This document shows, in pieces, positions 24,730 to 30,700 of a DNA stretch of 49,746 bases. The notes below the pieces were generated by a model. It saw nothing but the letters and a program-made list of their open reading frames with translations. It ran no database searches and was not told the origin of the DNA. Positions within the stretch are counted from its first letter, which is position 1; the number at the start of each line of letters is the position of its first letter. The DNA lies in contig CALXPF010000002.1 of NCBI GenBank assembly GCA_944390205.1, positions 1 through 49,746 on the forward strand, in the 5' to 3' direction. The translations under genes were made by a program, and so were the position numbers. The stretch comes from an uncultured Alphaproteobacteria bacterium. GTDB taxonomy: Bacteria; Pseudomonadota; Alphaproteobacteria; CAAHEQ01; UBA3637.

Positions 24730-27700
24730 ATGAAAGAAAATAGAGGATTAAGTTCATCGGACATTTATATCAAGAAAAGCAATCGCAGACTTTTATTGAT
24801 CGGTCTGGGACTGTTGCTTGTCTTTTTAATTGCGCTCGCGTTTATCTCAGAGGGGAGAAAATCTCGTCAGGAACGCCCGACAATTGAATATAATAATGAG
24901 TTAAGCGCCAGTCAATTAGGTCAAACCGGTGACGCCTCTCTTTTCCCGCGCGGAAGTGCTAATTTAAAAATTGATCCGGCAACGGTTGATATGAATAATG
25001 TCGTGATCGGTTCAAAGGCTGAGGCGATTGTGACACTGACAGCCGAAAATGCTCCTATTTTGTTCTTAGGAATGGATTTGGCGGAAGTTCAACAAGATGG
25101 TTTTACATTAGAAACAACATGTACCCCAAATACAGCCATTGCAAAGGATGCGTCTTGTAATATTAAGGTATTGTGGAATCCGGTTTCACTGAGGCAGATA
25201 CAAAATATCATGAATATCAGATGGAAAGAAGATTCTCCTTCCGTTTTCAGAGAAGAACGGACGGCCGTCAACATTCGGGCCCAATCCACTGATTCGAAGG
25301 ATTGCGTTATCTGTGAAGATGTTCGGGCTCAGGCAGAAAAGAAGCCCCGATATGCCATGGGGTTAGACGGAAAACTTCATGAAATTAAGGACGGAACGAT
25401 TACTCTTCCCGATGGAACAAAGTCAACGGAAACGGAAAATGGTCTTTTTGCGGATCAAAGTGGGAATATTGTTGCAATCGCAACACCTAAGCGAATTCCG
25501 CTCGGGATGGATAATACCATTTTGGGAAGCATCTCCGAAACACAAGATATCATTAGTGCCAATGGGGATAAGTTGGGACGGCTGTTGGGAGATGATACCA
25601 TTGTTGATTCTTCTTTAAAGGTTTTGGGCGCTGCAGTTCCGGTTGTTTCCGTTATGGATGATCAAGGGAAAATTATCGGAAAGTTATTAACGGACGGGAC
25701 GGTTGTTAATGCCGGAAATGTGGTTATCGGAAAACCGCGTGTTGATAATTCCGTTGTGGATTTGGAAGGAAAACATTTGGGATTCTTAAGACCGTGGGGA
25801 CTTGTTTCTAATTTTATGGGACAGGTAATCGGTGGAATTATTCCGGACGGGACGATTGTCAACGGAACGGGGCAAACGATCGGAACCATTACACCGACGG
25901 GATTAGCGATTGATTCGAGCGGTGAATTGATCGGTGGATTGATCCCGAGAGGTGTGGCTGTCGGATCCGGATGTCAATCGGTGGGAACTGTTTTATTGAA
26001 CGGACAGGTCAAAGATTCTTATGAGCAAATTGTCGGGACTGTTTTGTTGGATGGATCCGTTGTGAATGCAGAACAGACAGAGATAGGATCTGTTATTTCT
26101 CAGGGACTTGTTATTGATGAAAAGGGCGCCGTTTTAGGGTTTATAAACTCTGAAGGAAAGGCGGTTGATGCAAAAGGCGCCATGATTGGATGTTTGAATC
26201 CGGATGGTTCTGTTTCGGCCGGAAAGAAGCAAATCGGTGCCGTTATGGAAAAGGGTCGTGTGATTGGCTATGGGTGTCAAGTCATCGGTTCTGTTTATCC
26301 GGACGGATCGGTTGTGAATGATTTAACTGAGGTTGTCGGTCGTGTTTTAGCGAATAAATACGTCATGAATCTGAATAACAAACTGGTGGGTGTTGTTATT
26401 CCGCGGGGAACGGCAATTGCAGAAGGCTGTCGTCTGTTGGGATTGATTACCGTTAACGGAAGCGTTGTTGATTTAAACGGAACCGTTGTCGGATGTATGA
26501 CGCCGGATAGAACGGTTGTGAACGATCAGCGAGAAGTGATTGGTTCGGTTGCTCCGAAAGGTTTGGTTGTTGATAAAGACGGTAAAGTCATTGGTCGAGT
26601 TCGTTTGGACGGAAAAGTCATTGATCGAGAGGGAAAGGTGATCGGATGTGTTAATCCGGACGGAACCGTGACGACGTTAGACGGGAAACCGCTTGGGAGG
26701 CTTGTCGGAACCAAAGAAAGCAAAGGTGTTATTTTGGGTGAGGACGGAAATCCGAAGGGATGGACGATTGTCGGTGATAAGGTTTATGATGAAAAAAATA
26801 TTTTGGTCGGGACCCTTCAGCCCAATGGATGGATTGTTAGTGAAACCGGTAAAATTCTCGGGGTTGTTGTTCCGGATGGAGTTGTTTTCTCTTTTGACGG
26901 GCGAATTCTGGGTCGATATTCAAAAGCAAGCGGGGCTGCTTTTAATGAGGCCGGAGAAAAGATCGCCGTTATTTTGCCGGACTATACGGCATTAAATCCG
27001 GATAGAACGGCTATTATCGGGGCATTGATTCCGGATAAAACGGTGTTTATGGATTTCAATAACAATGTCTTGGGAACAATGCAAATTGACGGCTCACTCA
27101 AAGGATCTGCCGGAGAGGTTGTCGGGGTAATTCGTGCGGACGGATCTGTTGTTAATCAAGAAGGGTTGCCTATCGGAATGCGTATTCCGACCGGTCGAAT
27201 TTTCTCTTCTTTGGGAAAAGAAGTCGGCGTGATTTCCGATAACGGAGACGTTTTGTCACCGGCCAAAACAAAAATCGGGCGTGTTTTAGCTAACGGACTG
27301 GCCATTTCTAATGACGGAAAAGTTTTGGGCGGTGTTTTTCCGGATGTTTCCATTGCCATGAGCGGTGAAGGGGTTATCGGATATCCGACTTACCAAGGAA
27401 CCGTCAATGATCAAAACGGGCGACAAATAGGTGTTCTTTCACCGTTTGGGCTTGTTCTTGGAAGCGAAGGCGGGGTTATCGGTAAATTGGTTCGTATCGG
27501 AGCTTATTTAAATACTCAAAATCAATTAATCGGCTGGTCTTCTTTTGAGGGTGATTTAACCGGAAGAGACGGTCGCACGATTGGTAATATCGTTGCCGGC
27601 GGTGTTGCTTTGGATAAAAGCGGGGTTGTTTTGGGATCATTGGTCAATCGTGGATTCGCGGTTGATTCGGCCGGTCAATTCTTGGGACCGATTTCTCCTG

Positions 27701-30700
27701 ATAATCGTATTGTCGGACCGGATGCTTCCAATAAAGGTATTTTGAAGGCGTCTCAGTTTGTATATAATGCCAATCAAGAAATTGCCGGGCAGATTTTAAA
27801 ACCCGGTGTTGCCGTTGATCAGAACGGACAATTTATCGGCTGGGTTCGTGTCGACGGATCCGTTGAAAACGACAAGGGTTTTGTCGGCCGTATTTCTTTG
27901 GATCGTCATGTTCTTAATCAAAACGGATCAATTATCGGCTCTTATATCCCGTTGGATTCCGTTGCTTTTGCCGACATGGAAAAGAGCATTGGTTTTGTGA
28001 GCGGAGATGGTTCGATCGTTGACTTGAACGGACAAATTCAAGGATTTGCCGTCACGCCTCTTTTTGTTGCTCAAAACGGACGGATGATTGGTCGTTTATC
28101 GGATGAACTGCCGTTTGTCAATGATAACATAGCCGGAAAATTAATGGGAATCGGCAATTTAAACGGAGAGGCCATTATTGCAAATGATAATAAGCCGTTA
28201 GGGTCTGTAATGACCAATGGGTTGGTTGTTAATTTAACAAAAGAAGTTGTGGGCGGATTGGCTCCGATCGGGTTCCCGGTGACAAATACACTTGTCTCTT
28301 TAGGCGAGGTGATGAAAACGGGTGAAATCGTCTTTAATGAGAAATTAGAGGGGATGTCGACCGGAACGGGTGTGATTTATAATACCCAAAACGTATTGGC
28401 GGGATCTGTTTTATCTCCGAGCGTTTTCATCGGTAGAAACGGTGCTTTAATCGGTCGTAGCATGGGAACGAGTAATATTGTAAACAAAGATAATCAGAAA
28501 TTGGCGACACAAATGCCTTTCGGGTCTGCGTTGACATTGGATAATTTGTGGGCAGGCGGTGTTTTGCCGACAGGGGTTGCCGTAAATGATGATGCCCTTG
28601 AAATTGGTGTCGTGACGGTAGATGGTGCTTTAATTTCGCGGGATAATGCCGTTGTGGCTCGTATTATGACGGACGGTGTGGCTGTGAGTGTCAGTGATCG
28701 AGAGCTCTTTACAACGATGCCGTATGCCGGTAATTTGACGAAACAAGGGTTGCCTGTCGGGTACGAGAATGAGGTGTTGGGACGAACAACTCTTTCCGGT
28801 GATATTCTTAATGCCAGTGATAAGAAGAGTTATCGTATTTTGGATGACGGAACGATTTTAGGCGGAGAATTACCGTTGGCCGGAGCGGTTGTGTCTTTTG
28901 GAACGGCTGTTTCTCATGACGGCACCGTTTTGGGTATTTTGGCCGGAGACGGAACCATTCAGTCTGCCACCCAAGAAATAAAGGGGACAATTGCCGTGAA
29001 CGGAGCAGTTAAAGGATCCCATAAATTGGAAATTTTGGGTGCAATTGTTCCGGATCCGCTTGTGACAAATAATTGTCAGATTGTGGGCCAGACAACTCAT
29101 AATGGTCAGGTTATTAACGGACGAGGAGAGGTCGTCGGGCGTGTTTTGCCGGATAAATGGGTTGTTAACACGCGAAATGAACGAATTGGTCGTGTGACGC
29201 GTAAGGGTGCCGTTTTATCTCCGACCGGTGAATTTTTAGGCCGTACGCTACCGGATTCAACCGTTGTTGATACACGAGGCGTTAATATGGGCTGTGCTCG
29301 TAATGACGGATCCGTTGTAGACAATACGGGAGCGGTTGTTGGCCATGTGATTGAACGAGGCTTAGCGATCGGTGAAGACGGGAAACCGATCGGCCGTGTC
29401 AAGTTTAACGGTGATGTTGTTGATAAGAACAATATCAAAATCGGTCAGGTTTTGGGTGATGGAAAGGGAACGATTGTTGATTCAGAAGGAAATGTAATCG
29501 GACGCATGATTCCGAAAGATCGGGAAATTTTCTTCCATCCTGACGGAACGGTTTCCGGAACATTCGGACTGGACGGTACTTTTACGGATCCTCAGGGAAA
29601 TGCAGTCTTTCGTGTTTTACCGAACGGAGATATTGTGGATCCGGTGACGGGAGAAGTAATCGGTCGCTTGAAAGATGGTCAAATCGTTGATATGTCCGGA
29701 AAATCTTTGGATGGTGTTACGGTTTTAAGAGATAAAGAAGGCCGTGTTTTAGGAATTATTTCCGGATGTGACGTTTTGAACAATTACGGAGAAAAAATAG
29801 CTTCGATTATGGCCGACGGATCTATCATTGACTTGAACGGAGAAGTTTTCGGAACGGTTTTGGGAGATGGTAAGTTATTGGCTCCGGATGGCTCTGAAAT
29901 GGGAAGTGTCGGCGGAACAAATCCGAGATTGGATCGGTGCGGAATTAAGACAATTACCGGTTCGGGAGACGCTGATGGTGTGGGAACAGCCGGACGACGA
30001 ATCTTTATCGGAAAGAAGGCGTTTACGATCAATAACGGGTCTATTATTGATGAAACCGGAACGGTTATCGGATATATGGGAGAAGATGGACGTCCGTATT
30101 CTATGGATAACAGATTGTTGACGGGAGCCGATGCACAAGGGCGAACACGTCCGGATTTGGATAAGAAGACGGAAGTGACGCCGGAACAAGTGGCTCAGAT
30201 GCAACAATTGTTGGCACAAAAACGAGCCAGTATGCGTCAGGGAATTTCTAAGGTTATTAAACCGGATGGAAAGTTGTTGGCAAAGTCCAAGAAAAAACAA
30301 GATCCAAACTGGGGATTACCTCGGATTGTGTCTTCATGGCCGGTGGATATGTCACGCATGATTATGAAGGATAAAGCCATTCCGGCAGTTATTGTTCGCT
30401 CTATCGATTCTCGATATGTCGATGTCCCTGTGACGGCAATTGTTGAACGCCATATTTATTCCGAATCGGGTCGAAACATCTTAATCCCGGCCGGAAGCCG
30501 TATTATCGGAAAGGCTGAGTCCGGACAAGGCGAAAATCATGTTGCAAAACTTGATATCACATGGGAGAGATTGGTGCGTCCGGATGGCGGAGCCTTTATT
30601 TTCCAAGGGGTATCCGGAGATGCTCAAGGACGAGGCGGTGTGGCAGCCTACTTGGATGAACAGTTGATGGAAAAATATGGAAAACCGGTCTTAACGTCAA

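Follow-up and report, generated by a model that had tools for sequence, protein, structure and literature searches.

A giant VirB10 with an array of 17-residue beta-hairpin repeats in uncultured gut Alphaproteobacteria

In the 49,746 nucleotides of alphaproteobacterial DNA analysed here (the window), a type IV secretion system (T4SS) gene at 24730..31341 (+ strand) encodes a genuine VirB10 orthologue of 2,203 residues, the subunit linking the inner membrane to the outer-membrane T4SS core. It carries a long, conserved array of 17-residue repeats, and we think it probable, though far from assured, that this protein is a VirB10 in which the linker has been replaced by a hairpin-repeat periplasmic scaffold.

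A VirB10 orthologue in a VirB-type gene cluster

According to the ORF list and its translation, the reading frame (2,203 codons plus the stop codon) has no internal stop; the ATG is preceded, at a distance of 7 nt, by an AGGA ribosome-binding motif, and the N-terminus is kept in orthologues. It opens with a cytoplasmic tail and a single membrane-spanning helix (~aa 21-39; 24730..24849, +), recognised by a hydrophobic segment and by the conserved tail motif SSSxxYxKKSNR, both present in all fused-type (type A) relatives, and is of the canonical bitopic VirB10 type. A small periplasmic domain follows (24979..25218, +), weakly Ig-like (ASH/HYDIN type) by a Pfam ASH match below the curated cut-off (E=5e-4); one relative (P0208) has a precomputed PF15780 match. 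Beyond the repeat array (aa 233-1781; 25426..30072, +), a non-repeat linker (aa 1786-1877; 30085..30360, +; mean identity to orthologues 43%) leads to the TrbI/VirB10 C-terminal domain (aa 1878-2070; 30361..30939, +), the portion embedded in the outer-membrane core complex, which matches PF03743 over model positions 2-188 of 188 (E=5.6e-35) and whose closest solved relatives are ComB10 (8e-20), then Xanthomonas VirB10, CagY, TrwE and TraF. The protein closes with an acidic low-complexity tail (30940..31338, +) ending in NRLF, the terminal Phe recurring in 77 of 80 relatives, mostly as LF or MF. Its identity as VirB10 follows from the full-length TrbI domain, the N-terminal tail and helix, the place between VirB9 and VirB11 and these closest solved relatives. 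An earlier note on this DNA had proposed a repeat insertion in VirB10 between the membrane anchor and TrbI, at CagY/DotG scale; the insertion (~1,550 aa) is borne out and the protein is larger than either comparator, while the TrbI domain, placed by that note at 30319..30939, keeps its end and has its start moved by Pfam to 30361.

The gene order is VirB8-VirB7-VirB8-VirB9-VirB10-VirB11, all on the + strand: a first VirB8 paralogue (21105..21773; Pfam VirB8 E=7.5e-7, above the curated cut-off), a translated ORF for a 58-aa lipoprotein with lipobox LVAC (21854..22030), a second VirB8 paralogue (22052..22759; Pfam VirB8 E=3.2e-15), a 609-aa VirB9 whose C-terminus bears a SPOR peptidoglycan-binding domain (22873..24702; Pfam CagX E=1.9e-12, SPOR E=3.7e-4, weak NCBIfam VirB9 match) and, past VirB10, the VirB11 ATPase (31355..32344; NCBIfam VirB11 E=1.6e-40, Pfam T2SSE). 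The lipoprotein is probably VirB7-like, judging from its position and lipobox, and a relative (L001) has a 59-aa gene at the matching position. The enlargement of the adjoining, SPOR-bearing VirB9 parallels other enlarged machines.

Rickettsiales rvh systems are chromosomal and VirB-type, with two copies of VirB8 flanking a small ORF and virB9-virB10-virB11 coming next (PMC2653234), and the cluster in the window, likewise alphaproteobacterial and chromosomal, shares this virB8-virB11 layout. In Rickettsia, however, the two virB8 genes lie on opposite strands, virD4 follows virB11, and RvhB10 of R. typhi is of ordinary size (481 aa) with a proline-rich tract (PMC2653234), whereas in the window the + strand carries the two virB8 genes, VirB10 is 4.6 times longer and only small ORFs, with no VirD4, were found between VirB11 and htpG. 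VirB4, VirB6, VirB2/3 and VirD4 were all absent from the window. The rvh-type label given earlier thus fits the Rickettsia-like gene order but not the expectation of VirD4 after VirB11, any VirB4 and VirB6 copies falling outside the window.

A strictly periodic hairpin array

BLOSUM62 autocorrelation of aa 221-1800 revealed a significant periodicity, with peaks at lag 17 (z=22.0) and its multiples 34 (18.5), 51 (17.5), 68 (14.2) and 85 (11.7) and values near or below zero at neighbouring lags, so the repeat period is exactly 17; the 17-20 residues estimated by eye were right as to 17 but not as to the spread up to 20. With the per-position threshold set to 0.1%, a profile scan detected 57 non-overlapping units, and with 1% it detected 76, compared to 1.8 and 13.6 expected from composition-matched shuffles, and 55 of 75 successive unit spacings were exactly 17. 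The first unit begins at aa 233 and the last occupies aa 1765-1781, giving ~91 unit slots over nt 25426..30072, close to the 70-80 units at 25390..30120 read by eye. Derived from 39 clean units, the consensus is x-V-x-P-D-G-x-V-V-D-x-x-G-x-V-I-G, and the array is rich in G (15.8%) and V (11.9%), followed by I (8.2%), L (8.1%), D (7.0%) and N (5.9%); F+Y+W together account for 4.1%. At the DNA level, self-comparison of the window array yielded no long exact repeats, only copies of 60-80% identity whose spacing is a multiple of 51 nt, and no significant repeat was reported there by Tandem Repeats Finder, in agreement with what had been claimed for this copy.

The repeat is not an unclassified motif, as it has a home in Pfam: Bflower_2 (PF21785) matches the array in 10 stretches with 250.6 bits against a 38-bit cut-off (E=1.6e-75), and Bflower (PF21784) and DUF3659 match as well. 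The tip motif [DNEQ]xxG, named in the paper defining the beta-flower fold (PMC10584680), occurs 71 times, and one fragment belonging to a relative is annotated by NCBI as '5-fold beta-flower protein'. The beta-hairpin stack suspected earlier is also what AF2 predicts, modelling aa 290-660 as an all-beta hairpin array (pLDDT 90.6, pTM 0.83) in which strands of 5 and 3 residues alternate every 17 residues. An 806-aa model (aa 205-1010) is all-beta too (pLDDT 78.9, pTM 0.60), and since its confidence dips at aa 661-665 and past ~aa 650, hinges or segment boundaries are possible.

Against solved structures, Foldseek matched the array only locally (TM at most 0.19), which leaves its global shape without confirmation from a solved fold. 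The best structural-alphabet matches were to Rhs/YD shells (T6SS Rhs effectors, Tc toxin BC components, teneurins), top-ranked for the 806-aa model with E=1e-27 and a Foldseek probability of 0.98-0.99, and several relatives carry faint precomputed Pfam RHS_repeat (PF05593) matches and YD-like cassettes reading NIYDKDGNLIG. That the repeats are a short Rhs/YD variant building a hollow, cargo-enclosing shell, as in Rhs toxins, Tc toxins and teneurins, is nevertheless very improbable: these matches do not superpose globally (TM at most 0.11, rmsd ~30 Å), the Rhs core motif PxxxxDPxGL is absent, the whole window array holds one YD dipeptide, its strands span 3-5 residues whereas those of YD shells are much longer, and the cysteine spacing described next implies a far tighter turn.

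The 14 cysteines of the giant VirB10 fall into 7 pairs, and in four of these the partners are exactly 73 residues apart: C415-C488, C516-C589 and C567-C640 (25972..26651, +) and C1449-C1522 (29074..29295, +). Across 50 orthologues both partners were present or both missing in 49 and 1, 43 and 7, 50 and 0, and 42 and 8 cases, respectively, and a lone partner of a 73-spaced pair never occurred. C516-C589 and C567-C640 interleave, and their pairing is fixed by the 7 orthologues that lack 516/589 and still have 567/640. Throughout the family 73 is the commonest Cys-Cys spacing, including in 15 of 16 split-type proteins, and both the Cys pair 131/143 of the N-terminal periplasmic domain and a CxxC at aa 192-195 (25303..25314, +) are kept in 50/50 orthologues. 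Apart from the Cys pairs, no contact signal emerged from a general covariation scan (effective sequence number ~35). As a pattern of positions and covariation, the co-kept 73-spaced pairs argue for disulfides, a periplasmic site and a tight continuous spiral.

With partners 73 residues apart, a turn would comprise ~4.3 hairpins. Because the pairs interleave, pTM is high across the 22 units of aa 290-660 and both autocorrelation and conservation profile lack an 85-residue super-period, the array is probably one continuous, tightly wound hairpin spiral of ~4-5 hairpins per turn rather than a set of discrete barrels; its geometry, turn number and rod length are deduced from the cysteine spacing and the missing super-period. 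Described beta-flowers are small ~96-residue domains of 4-6 hairpins closed as a barrel, often around a C-terminal helix (PMC10584680). The array resembles these proteins (PF21785/PF21784, clan CL0395; Durairaj et al. 2023) in its Pfam match, [DNEQ]xxG tip and short antiparallel strands, but its ~91 hairpins run on with no helix, no such super-period and interleaved disulfide pairs, and hence it would be an 'opened' beta-flower and not a string of closed five-petal barrels.

Conservation of the array and length variation in relatives

The giant VirB10 is no isolated case: many uncultured Alphaproteobacteria of the gut have it. The 80 best genome loci in gut alphaproteobacterial assemblies, drawn from separate GTDB species-representative genomes, include 72 complete relatives, every one of them giant, 56 with 2,103-2,666 aa and 16 with 1,194-1,859 aa; giant proteins make up 34 of the best 150 cluster representatives, and in at least 8 species the gene is split in two. 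We found no description of a giant hairpin-repeat VirB10 in the literature, and thus the earlier surmise that it was not known in an rvh context stands as far as the literature searches reach, while any suggestion of rarity falls away: such proteins are common, with no prior description found.

The array is position-by-position orthologous across at least 50 species. It is collinear in 50 orthologues: the gap fraction is mostly 1-2%, rising to 8% over the last 195 residues, where the hot-spot site described below is located, and the median number of inserted residues is 1-4 in each 400-500-aa block except the last, where it is 12. Its dN/dS of 0.058 reveals strong purifying selection. Full-length members of three 90%-identity clusters measure 2,201/2,202, 2,265/2,266 and 2,363-2,370 aa, all those listed lying within 7 residues of their own representative. 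Given the low gap fraction, few insertions, low dN/dS and near-invariant cluster lengths, the window array is an old, fixed structural element and not a recombination switch, as had been proposed.

These data also bear on whether the long ORF could be an assembly error or a decaying, functionless pseudogene. Repeat-rich genes often assemble badly and the L001 relative has a scaffold gap within a cassette, yet this possibility is effectively refuted by the recurrence of complete giant ORFs in separate species, by the selection and length constancy just described and by the lack in the window of long exact repeats able to mislead an assembler. The continuity of the ORF is supported by a 96% aa-identical relative of 2,202 aa (L003) and by the cluster with 141 members, in which 15/15 lengths listed (of 40 members read) are 2,201 or 2,202 aa in independent assemblies; with such near-equal lengths, the giant ORF is not an assembly artefact.

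Several relatives carry young tandem cassettes. In the close pairs that were compared, they sit at a single distal hot spot, where indels of 48-324 aa separate pairs of 86-95% identity. The cassettes are the young YD-like repeats mentioned above; in one relative (L017) the cassette DNA has a period of 207 nt with 92% matches. The homologous site in the window (29914..30024, +), just past the conserved motif NPRLDRCGIKT, is empty, with no young tandem cassette. In several relatives the cassettes are recombination-prone and tune length, so that the contrast drawn earlier with CagY, namely the lack of long exact DNA repeats, applies to the window gene but fails family-wide.

A putative periplasmic scaffold among enlarged VirB10 proteins

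The array most likely lies in the periplasm. It is flanked by the N-in membrane anchor and the outer-membrane-complex domain, which hold both its ends inside the envelope, and a Sec signal peptide has been acquired by the C-terminal half of the split forms. Together with the covarying cysteines, these features do not favour the earlier idea that the array might project beyond the cell. Display on the surface, as an adhesin or sheath contacting host or partner cells, was once proposed for the CagY repeats; those repeats are reported to decorate the surface, and the DotG variable region has been argued to be host-exposed, both in work that passages of PMC6761968 cite. The young variable cassettes of some relatives have a pattern typical of exposed proteins, and related gut Alphaproteobacteria of the order Rs-D84, to which the window may belong, are thought to be partner-cell dependent (PMC12306168). 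We regard such display as unlikely here, since the array is anchored as described, is mostly conserved and collinear under purifying and not diversifying selection, and is near-invariant in length within the 90% clusters looked up.

Foldseek matches also include the CROP repeats of C. difficile toxin and the choline-binding repeats of LytC, and the adjoining VirB9 has its peptidoglycan-binding SPOR domain, which raises the idea of a glycan- or cell-wall-binding hairpin solenoid anchoring the machine in peptidoglycan. Choline- or sugar-binding sites are usually lined by aromatic residues, whereas the array is aromatic-poor; moreover, the CROP and LytC matches have TM <0.15, and ~1,550 residues per subunit go far beyond any apparent anchoring need. 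We therefore doubt this explanation. A peptidoglycan-anchoring role could coexist with a scaffold role.

Enlarged VirB10 homologues are known from two other systems. CagY of the Helicobacter pylori Cag T4SS has 1,927 aa, with a repeat region of at least ~1,000 aa that separates the membrane anchor from the C-terminal VirB10 domain and holds disulfide-forming cysteines, and its middle repeats, predicted short alpha-helical modules, vary between strains by rearrangement (PMC10706595). The repeats of the window protein occupy the matching topological position and hold its putative disulfide cysteines, and relatives share a recombination-prone cassette with CagY, but the repeats here are 17-residue beta-hairpins with no sequence homology to CagY, no long DNA repeats, near-fixed length in 90% clusters and an unlike operon context. 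DotG/IcmE of the Legionella and Coxiella Dot/Icm systems varies in length between 1,000 and over 1,500 aa, its large size being explained by a repeat-bearing middle region ahead of a C-terminal TrbI domain (PMC6761968). The window protein has the same C-terminal domain with repeats at the matching position; DotG, however, has pentapeptide repeats in a type IVB system and varies in size and recombines even within species (PMC6761968), whereas the window protein is larger and has 17-residue hairpins in a VirB-type cluster.

From this architecture we infer a function for the giant VirB10 as a scaffold. The usual proline-rich periplasmic linker of VirB10 would be replaced by ~1,550 residues of 17-residue beta-flower/YD-like hairpins, folding in the periplasm as a continuous hairpin spiral whose successive turns would be stapled by disulfides. 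In the multi-copy VirB10 ring, the resulting rods could together form a cage, ring or strut, in effect a rigid and enlarged scaffold that crosses the periplasm from the inner-membrane anchor to the outer-membrane cap. At least 14 copies of a 170-kDa periplasmic array are a very large mass to fit, a point against the scaffold. We read the window protein as a further, independent instance of VirB10 gigantism, the third beside CagY and DotG, built from a new repeat type, in which the scaffold would enlarge the machine in analogy to CagY in Cag and DotG in Dot/Icm.

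VirB10 identity and the surrounding virB cluster

Type IV secretion systems have VirB10 as their energy-sensing spine. The window ORF at 24730..31341 (+ strand) is uninterrupted, encodes 2,203 residues and has VirB10-like ends: a TrbI/VirB10 domain at aa 1878-2070 matches Pfam PF03743 almost end to end (model positions 2-188 of 188; E=5.6e-35; 121 bits, with the cut-off at 35), and the closest solved relatives (PDB) of the C-terminal part by sequence are ComB10 (8e-20), Xanthomonas VirB10, CagY, TrwE and TraF. The topology is bitopic, with a hydrophobic segment at approximately aa 21-39 that follows KKSNRR and is kept in the fused-type (type A, single-ORF) relatives listed. 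In the N-domain, the Cys pair 131/143 and the CxxC at 192-195 are invariant (50/50 orthologues). A proline-rich linker occurs in many VirB10/TrbI members without being obligatory for the family (PMC2653234); this periplasmic linker is absent from the giant VirB10, in which a repeat array containing 3.7% Pro occupies its place.

Two further features of the protein were observed. A small domain between the anchor and the repeats (24979-25314, + strand) shows weak Ig-like similarity of the ASH/HYDIN type, and the VirB10 tail (31330-31338 in the window; C-termini of the relatives L003-L082) is poorly conserved, yet Phe is the last residue in 77 of 80 relatives, in most as part of LF or MF. Such an ending is reminiscent of outer-membrane proteins, which carry a terminal aromatic signal.

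The gene lies between virB9 and virB11 in a cluster whose members all run on the + strand: a first VirB8 copy (21105..21773), a lipoprotein of 58 aa that we take as VirB7-like, with an LVAC lipobox in its ORF translation (21854..22030), a second VirB8 copy (22052..22759), VirB9 (22873..24702), the giant VirB10 and VirB11 (31355..32344), with VirB8 and VirB9 assigned by Pfam and VirB11 by a domain match. No virD4 directly follows virB11 in the window, as the approximately 880 nt at 32345-33223 hold only small ORFs up to htpG, which is on the opposite strand. Because the genes around the cluster are housekeeping genes (Lpt, SurA, FolD, HtpG, LepA, GroEL, RNase R and AdhE), the cluster is chromosomal. 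VirB9, with 609 aa, is about twice the usual size and ends in a peptidoglycan-binding SPOR domain, and therefore the whole core complex, not VirB10 alone, looks elaborated.

In rvh systems two VirB8 genes surround a small VirB7-like ORF and are followed by virB9-virB10-virB11-virD4. The window has the two VirB8, the small lipoprotein, VirB9, VirB10 and VirB11 in this order, but its virB8 genes share a strand and no virD4 follows virB11; its gene order, known here from the 49.7-kb window alone, is thus similar but not identical to rvh. Other rvh hallmarks are duplicated VirB4 and VirB9, multicopy VirB6 and the lack of VirB5 (PMC11077975); the genes concerned, where present, would be located beyond the window.

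Directly 5' of virB8, six consecutive and tightly packed ORFs of 245-542 aa (14151-21135, + strand), each with a signal-peptide-like N-terminus, received no assignment from Pfam or NCBIfam and are possibly periplasmic or pilus-related parts of the same machine. Elsewhere in the window, a single 1,083-aa ORF (8818-12069, + strand) joins an LptF/LptG permease (aa 6-355) to LptD_N and LptD (aa 406-1019), an apparent fusion of inner- and outer-membrane LPS transport components that could be real or due to a missed stop codon.

A strict 17-residue repeat and its predicted fold

BLOSUM62 autocorrelation of aa 221-1800, compared with 200 shuffles, gave a sharp peak at lag 17 (z=22) and decaying peaks at each multiple up to 119, with neighbouring lags near or below zero and no 85-residue super-period. 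When printed 17 residues per line, aa 301-656 remain in one register save for a single one-residue deletion. A profile of 39 clean units, with the consensus x-V-x-P-D-G-x-V-V-D-x-x-G-x-V-I-G, detected 57 units at a strict threshold versus 1.8 in shuffles, and 76 versus 13.6 at a looser one; 55 of 75 successive unit spacings are exactly 17, and from the first unit start (aa 233) to the last unit end (aa 1781) the array comprises approximately 91 slots. This thresholded scan with shuffle controls gives the unit count of record. It replaced HMMER domain calling with a 17-residue seed model, which undercounts units (45-49 envelopes, many partial), and wrap-around alignment with lenient penalties, which over-calls fragments outside the array.

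The earlier note had described a giant repeat-bearing VirB10 made of 17-20-residue units, rich in Gly, Val, Ile, Asp and Asn, poor in aromatic residues and devoid of long exact DNA repeats. The intact ORF, the full-length TrbI domain and the repeats bear this out, as does the composition of the array (G 15.8%, V 11.9%, I 8.2%, D 7.0%, N 5.9%, aromatics 4.1%), while the unit is a strict 17 residues and thus more regular than had been claimed. At the DNA level, the window gene has only copies of 60-80% identity, which recur at 51 nt or a multiple of it; neither a significant tandem array nor a long exact repeat was found.

The array is matched by the beta-flower families Bflower_2 (PF21785; E=1.6e-75, 250.6 bits against a 38-bit cut-off, ten stretches) and Bflower (PF21784; 58.7 bits against 25) of Pfam, DUF3659 also matches mid-protein, and the [DNEQ]xxG hairpin-tip motif occurs 71 times. 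AlphaFold2 modelling of aa 290-660 with a 19-sequence alignment of orthologous fragments (mean pLDDT 90.6, pTM 0.83) predicts a five-residue strand alternating with a three-residue strand every 17 residues. A larger model (aa 205-1010) is likewise all-beta (pLDDT 78.9, pTM 0.60), with a dip at aa 661-665 and confidence that falls where the alignment is shallow; neither model predicts helices between repeat units.

By sequence, the whole array matched no PDB chain. Foldseek against the PDB placed Rhs/YD-repeat shells and teneurins at the top, with Tc toxins also present and C. difficile toxin repeats and fascin lower; E values reached 1e-27 and probabilities 0.99, but TM was at most 0.19 at an rmsd of approximately 30 Å, and therefore the predicted hairpin geometry would be familiar locally whereas the global shape matches nothing solved. 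An Rhs-like shell was rejected: Rhs/YD proteins combine a YD-repeat shell with the core motif PxxxxDPxGL, but this motif is absent from the array, which has a single YD dipeptide, and despite high local Foldseek scores the modelled array aligns to Rhs shells with TM of at most 0.11.

Cysteines point to how the predicted hairpins may pack. The protein has 14 Cys, which form seven pairs, four of them exactly 73 residues apart (415/488, 516/589, 567/640 and 1449/1522), each with one Cys at unit position 13 and the other at position 1 five units later. Across 50 full-length orthologues, both or neither Cys are present in 49/1 (415/488), 43/7 (516/589), 50/0 (567/640) and 42/8 (1449/1522) proteins, and pair 1680/1737 behaves similarly (27/22, one exception). 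Among 64 fused-type proteins, no other distance between Cys residues is nearly as common as 73 (232 occurrences), and this spacing is also found in 15 of 16 split-type proteins, in which the same protein is encoded by two adjacent ORFs. We read these covarying pairs as putative disulfides, which would place the array in an oxidising compartment, with hairpin k adjoining hairpin k+4 or k+5. Pairs 516/589 and 567/640 interleave, and this pairing is fixed by the seven orthologues that lack 516/589 and retain 567/640.

Described beta-flowers consist of four to six hairpins in a shallow closed barrel, often with a C-terminal helix; the family, defined in 2023, comprises small closed domains whose function is unknown, with no long arrays in secretion machines (PMC10584680). 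The array could be pictured as a chain of discrete five-petal barrels, but the predicted lack of inter-unit helices, the missing 85-residue super-period and the interleaved pairs argue against it. Instead, the interleaved staples, the lack of that super-period and the high pTM over 22 units lead us to infer one continuous tight spiral with approximately 4-5 hairpins per turn. Fourier analysis of the conservation profile gave no super-period of 51, 73, 85 or 102 (period 68 was marginal, in a single segment only), and a mutual-information scan of the 50 orthologues (effective number approximately 35) returned only noise, speaking neither for nor against the spiral.

Relatives, constraint and split forms

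With the 413 C-terminal residues as query, we searched 1.84 billion cluster representatives. All but a few of the closest matches (approximately E<1e-49) are giants or truncated fragments, the giants falling into two size groups (1,888-2,406 aa and approximately 1,400-1,650 aa), while VirB10 proteins of 500-630 aa are the rule from approximately E=1e-37 downward. Among the best 150 cluster representatives, 17 is the best period in all 34 matches of at least 1,000 aa, whereas VirB10 relatives of ordinary size show repeat units at chance level only. A scan of one genome per GTDB species recovered 254 stretches encoding a relative, of which the best 80 distinct loci were kept. Their record titles name almost exclusively uncultured Alphaproteobacteria or proteobacteria (three name Firmicutes taxa), and the isolate or contig names of most point to animal or human gut (ruminants, rabbit, human cohorts, along with 'Acetobacter sp. 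CAG:977' and 'Rhodospirillaceae UMGS' records). In 72 of the 80 loci the ORF is complete, with 56 proteins of 2,103-2,666 aa (median 2,270), 16 of 1,194-1,859 aa and none below 1,000 aa. The giant VirB10 is thus a feature of a clade rather than a singleton.

A word-indexed search returned only fragments of 550-720 aa that start inside the repeats, and NCBI names for fragments of relatives include '5-fold beta-flower protein' and 'TrbI/VirB10 family protein'. In one public metagenome record (L001:4351-10001), a scaffold gap interrupts a 1,895-aa repeat-bearing ORF, which for this reason had escaped gene calling; its place was given to four minus-strand 'genes' that lack a Pfam match. The family is therefore under-represented in protein databases.

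Aligned to 50 orthologues, the repeat region has a gap fraction of 1-2% over most of its length and a median of 1-4 inserted residues per 400-500-aa block, rising to 8% and 12 inserted residues in the last 195 residues; its identity to the window protein is 39-51%, versus 67% for the TrbI domain. Since the alignment is nearly gapless, each predicted hairpin has its own orthologue. Compared with the nearest relative, L003 (2,202 aa, 96% protein and 91% DNA identity), the array has a dN/dS of 0.058, the N-terminal part one of 0.022 and the linker with the TrbI domain one of 0.011 (dS approximately 0.37-0.40). Lengths are nearly fixed: the 15 members listed, among 40 read, of a 141-member 90% cluster all have 2,201 or 2,202 aa, full-length members of another have 2,265 or 2,266 aa, and across the 90% clusters looked up full-length members differ by at most 7 residues. 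An assembly artefact or pseudogene is rejected by the complete giant ORFs, the low dN/dS and the near-fixed lengths, and constraint together with length supports the earlier suggestion of an old structural extension. What emerges is a VirB10 with canonical ends and, between them, a conserved and constrained array of approximately 91 predicted hairpins with covarying Cys pairs.

In six species pairs at 86-95% identity, length differences concentrate at one site (approximately aa 1,740-1,800 of the alignment, immediately 3' of the conserved motif NPRLDRCGIKT, and within the gap-rich last 195 residues), where indels measure 48, 84, 121, 190, 226 and 324 aa; in a more distant pair (L063/L082, 81% identity) the large indels lie at other places in the array. 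The inserted cassettes are very regular YD-like 17-mers, e.g. NIYDKDGNLIGRVDENG, arranged in super-units. In L017 (9044-9607) the cassette DNA repeats every 207 nt with 92% matches, two arrays in L060 (6224-7023 and 8219-9215, one of them mid-protein) repeat every 168 nt, and the L001 cassette (approximately 9500-10100) contains the scaffold gap. We conclude that these are young, near-identical and recombination-prone tandem repeats. Neither the window gene nor L003 has a cassette at this site, so that the family comprises a fixed core array and an optional module, with the window gene representing the core only.

The shorter class (1,400-1,900 aa) begins with a Sec-type signal peptide followed by QEITAIDFNG. 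In at least 8 species, an adjoining upstream ORF of 1,092-1,293 aa has the VirB10 N-terminal motif and membrane helix, as in L064 (3194-11008), L059, L066, L068, L069, L070, L072 and L078, and full translation of the L064 upstream ORF also revealed the N-domain, repeats and Cys pairs. The second gene encodes 1,393-1,859 aa, which comprise a separate Sec signal peptide, further repeats and the TrbI domain. The motif and helix of the upstream ORF indicate that the giant VirB10 is divided here in two, an inner-membrane half and an outer half that is exported, which add up to 2,600-3,100 aa; this suggests that two arrays can work without a covalent join. Export of the outer half supports a periplasmic location of the repeats, and we consider display of the array on the cell surface unlikely.

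Comparison with CagY and DotG and possible role

VirB10 gigantism by repeats is already known, and to our knowledge the well-known giants are only CagY and DotG, from two much-studied pathogen machines. The repeat regions of both are still structurally unresolved. CagY has alpha-helical A/B repeat modules (predicted helical, PMC10706595), whereas the window array is predicted by AlphaFold2 to be all-beta, and the CagY-type switch relies on recombination between long near-identical in-frame DNA repeats with varying repeat number, which are absent from the window gene but carried by some of its relatives. DotG/IcmE has pentapeptide repeats in its mid-region and accompanies type IVB (Dot/Icm) genes, while the window protein has a period of 17 rather than 5 and no pentapeptide Pfam match, and its neighbours are VirB-type. 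The repeat type, fold, natural split forms and host clade are not described in the literature searched, which yielded no paper tying beta-flower repeats, DUF3659 or giant size to VirB10 (CagY and DotG aside) and nothing on RF32 with type IV secretion or on gut Alphaproteobacteria with VirB10 and rvh; the one paper found on the order Rs-D84 makes no mention of such systems.

The VirB10 homologues of the Cag and Dot/Icm systems have repeat regions between the same topological points (PMC10706595, PMC6761968). The array would be a rigid periplasmic spiral, stapled by disulfides. By analogy with these enlarged machines, such arrays in a multi-copy VirB10 ring may form an enlarged scaffold from the inner membrane to the outer-membrane cap. 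The enlarged VirB9 with its SPOR domain fits a generally elaborated core complex. That the array instead serves to bind the cell wall appears as improbable as its surface display.

We propose, tentatively and with slightly less than even confidence, that a large clade of uncultured Alphaproteobacteria from the mammalian gut possesses type IV secretion systems of an architectural class not yet described. In this class VirB10, as one fused protein or as two (an inner-membrane half and an outer half with a signal peptide), would build a superhelix of beta-hairpins, stapled by disulfides and tens of nanometres in length. Such a periplasmic superstructure would be unlike Cag, Dot/Icm or the minimal VirB system and may be the apparatus with which these bacteria contact partner or host cells. 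The giant VirB10 is, on our reading, a third, independent enlargement after CagY and DotG, with a different and confidently predictable beta-repeat, and one that offers position-by-position conservation over dozens of species along with natural fused and split forms. The recently named beta-flower repeat is now tied to a defined machine and, probably, to a defined cell compartment, and a conspicuous and costly surface-machine gene is flagged in poorly understood gut bacteria.
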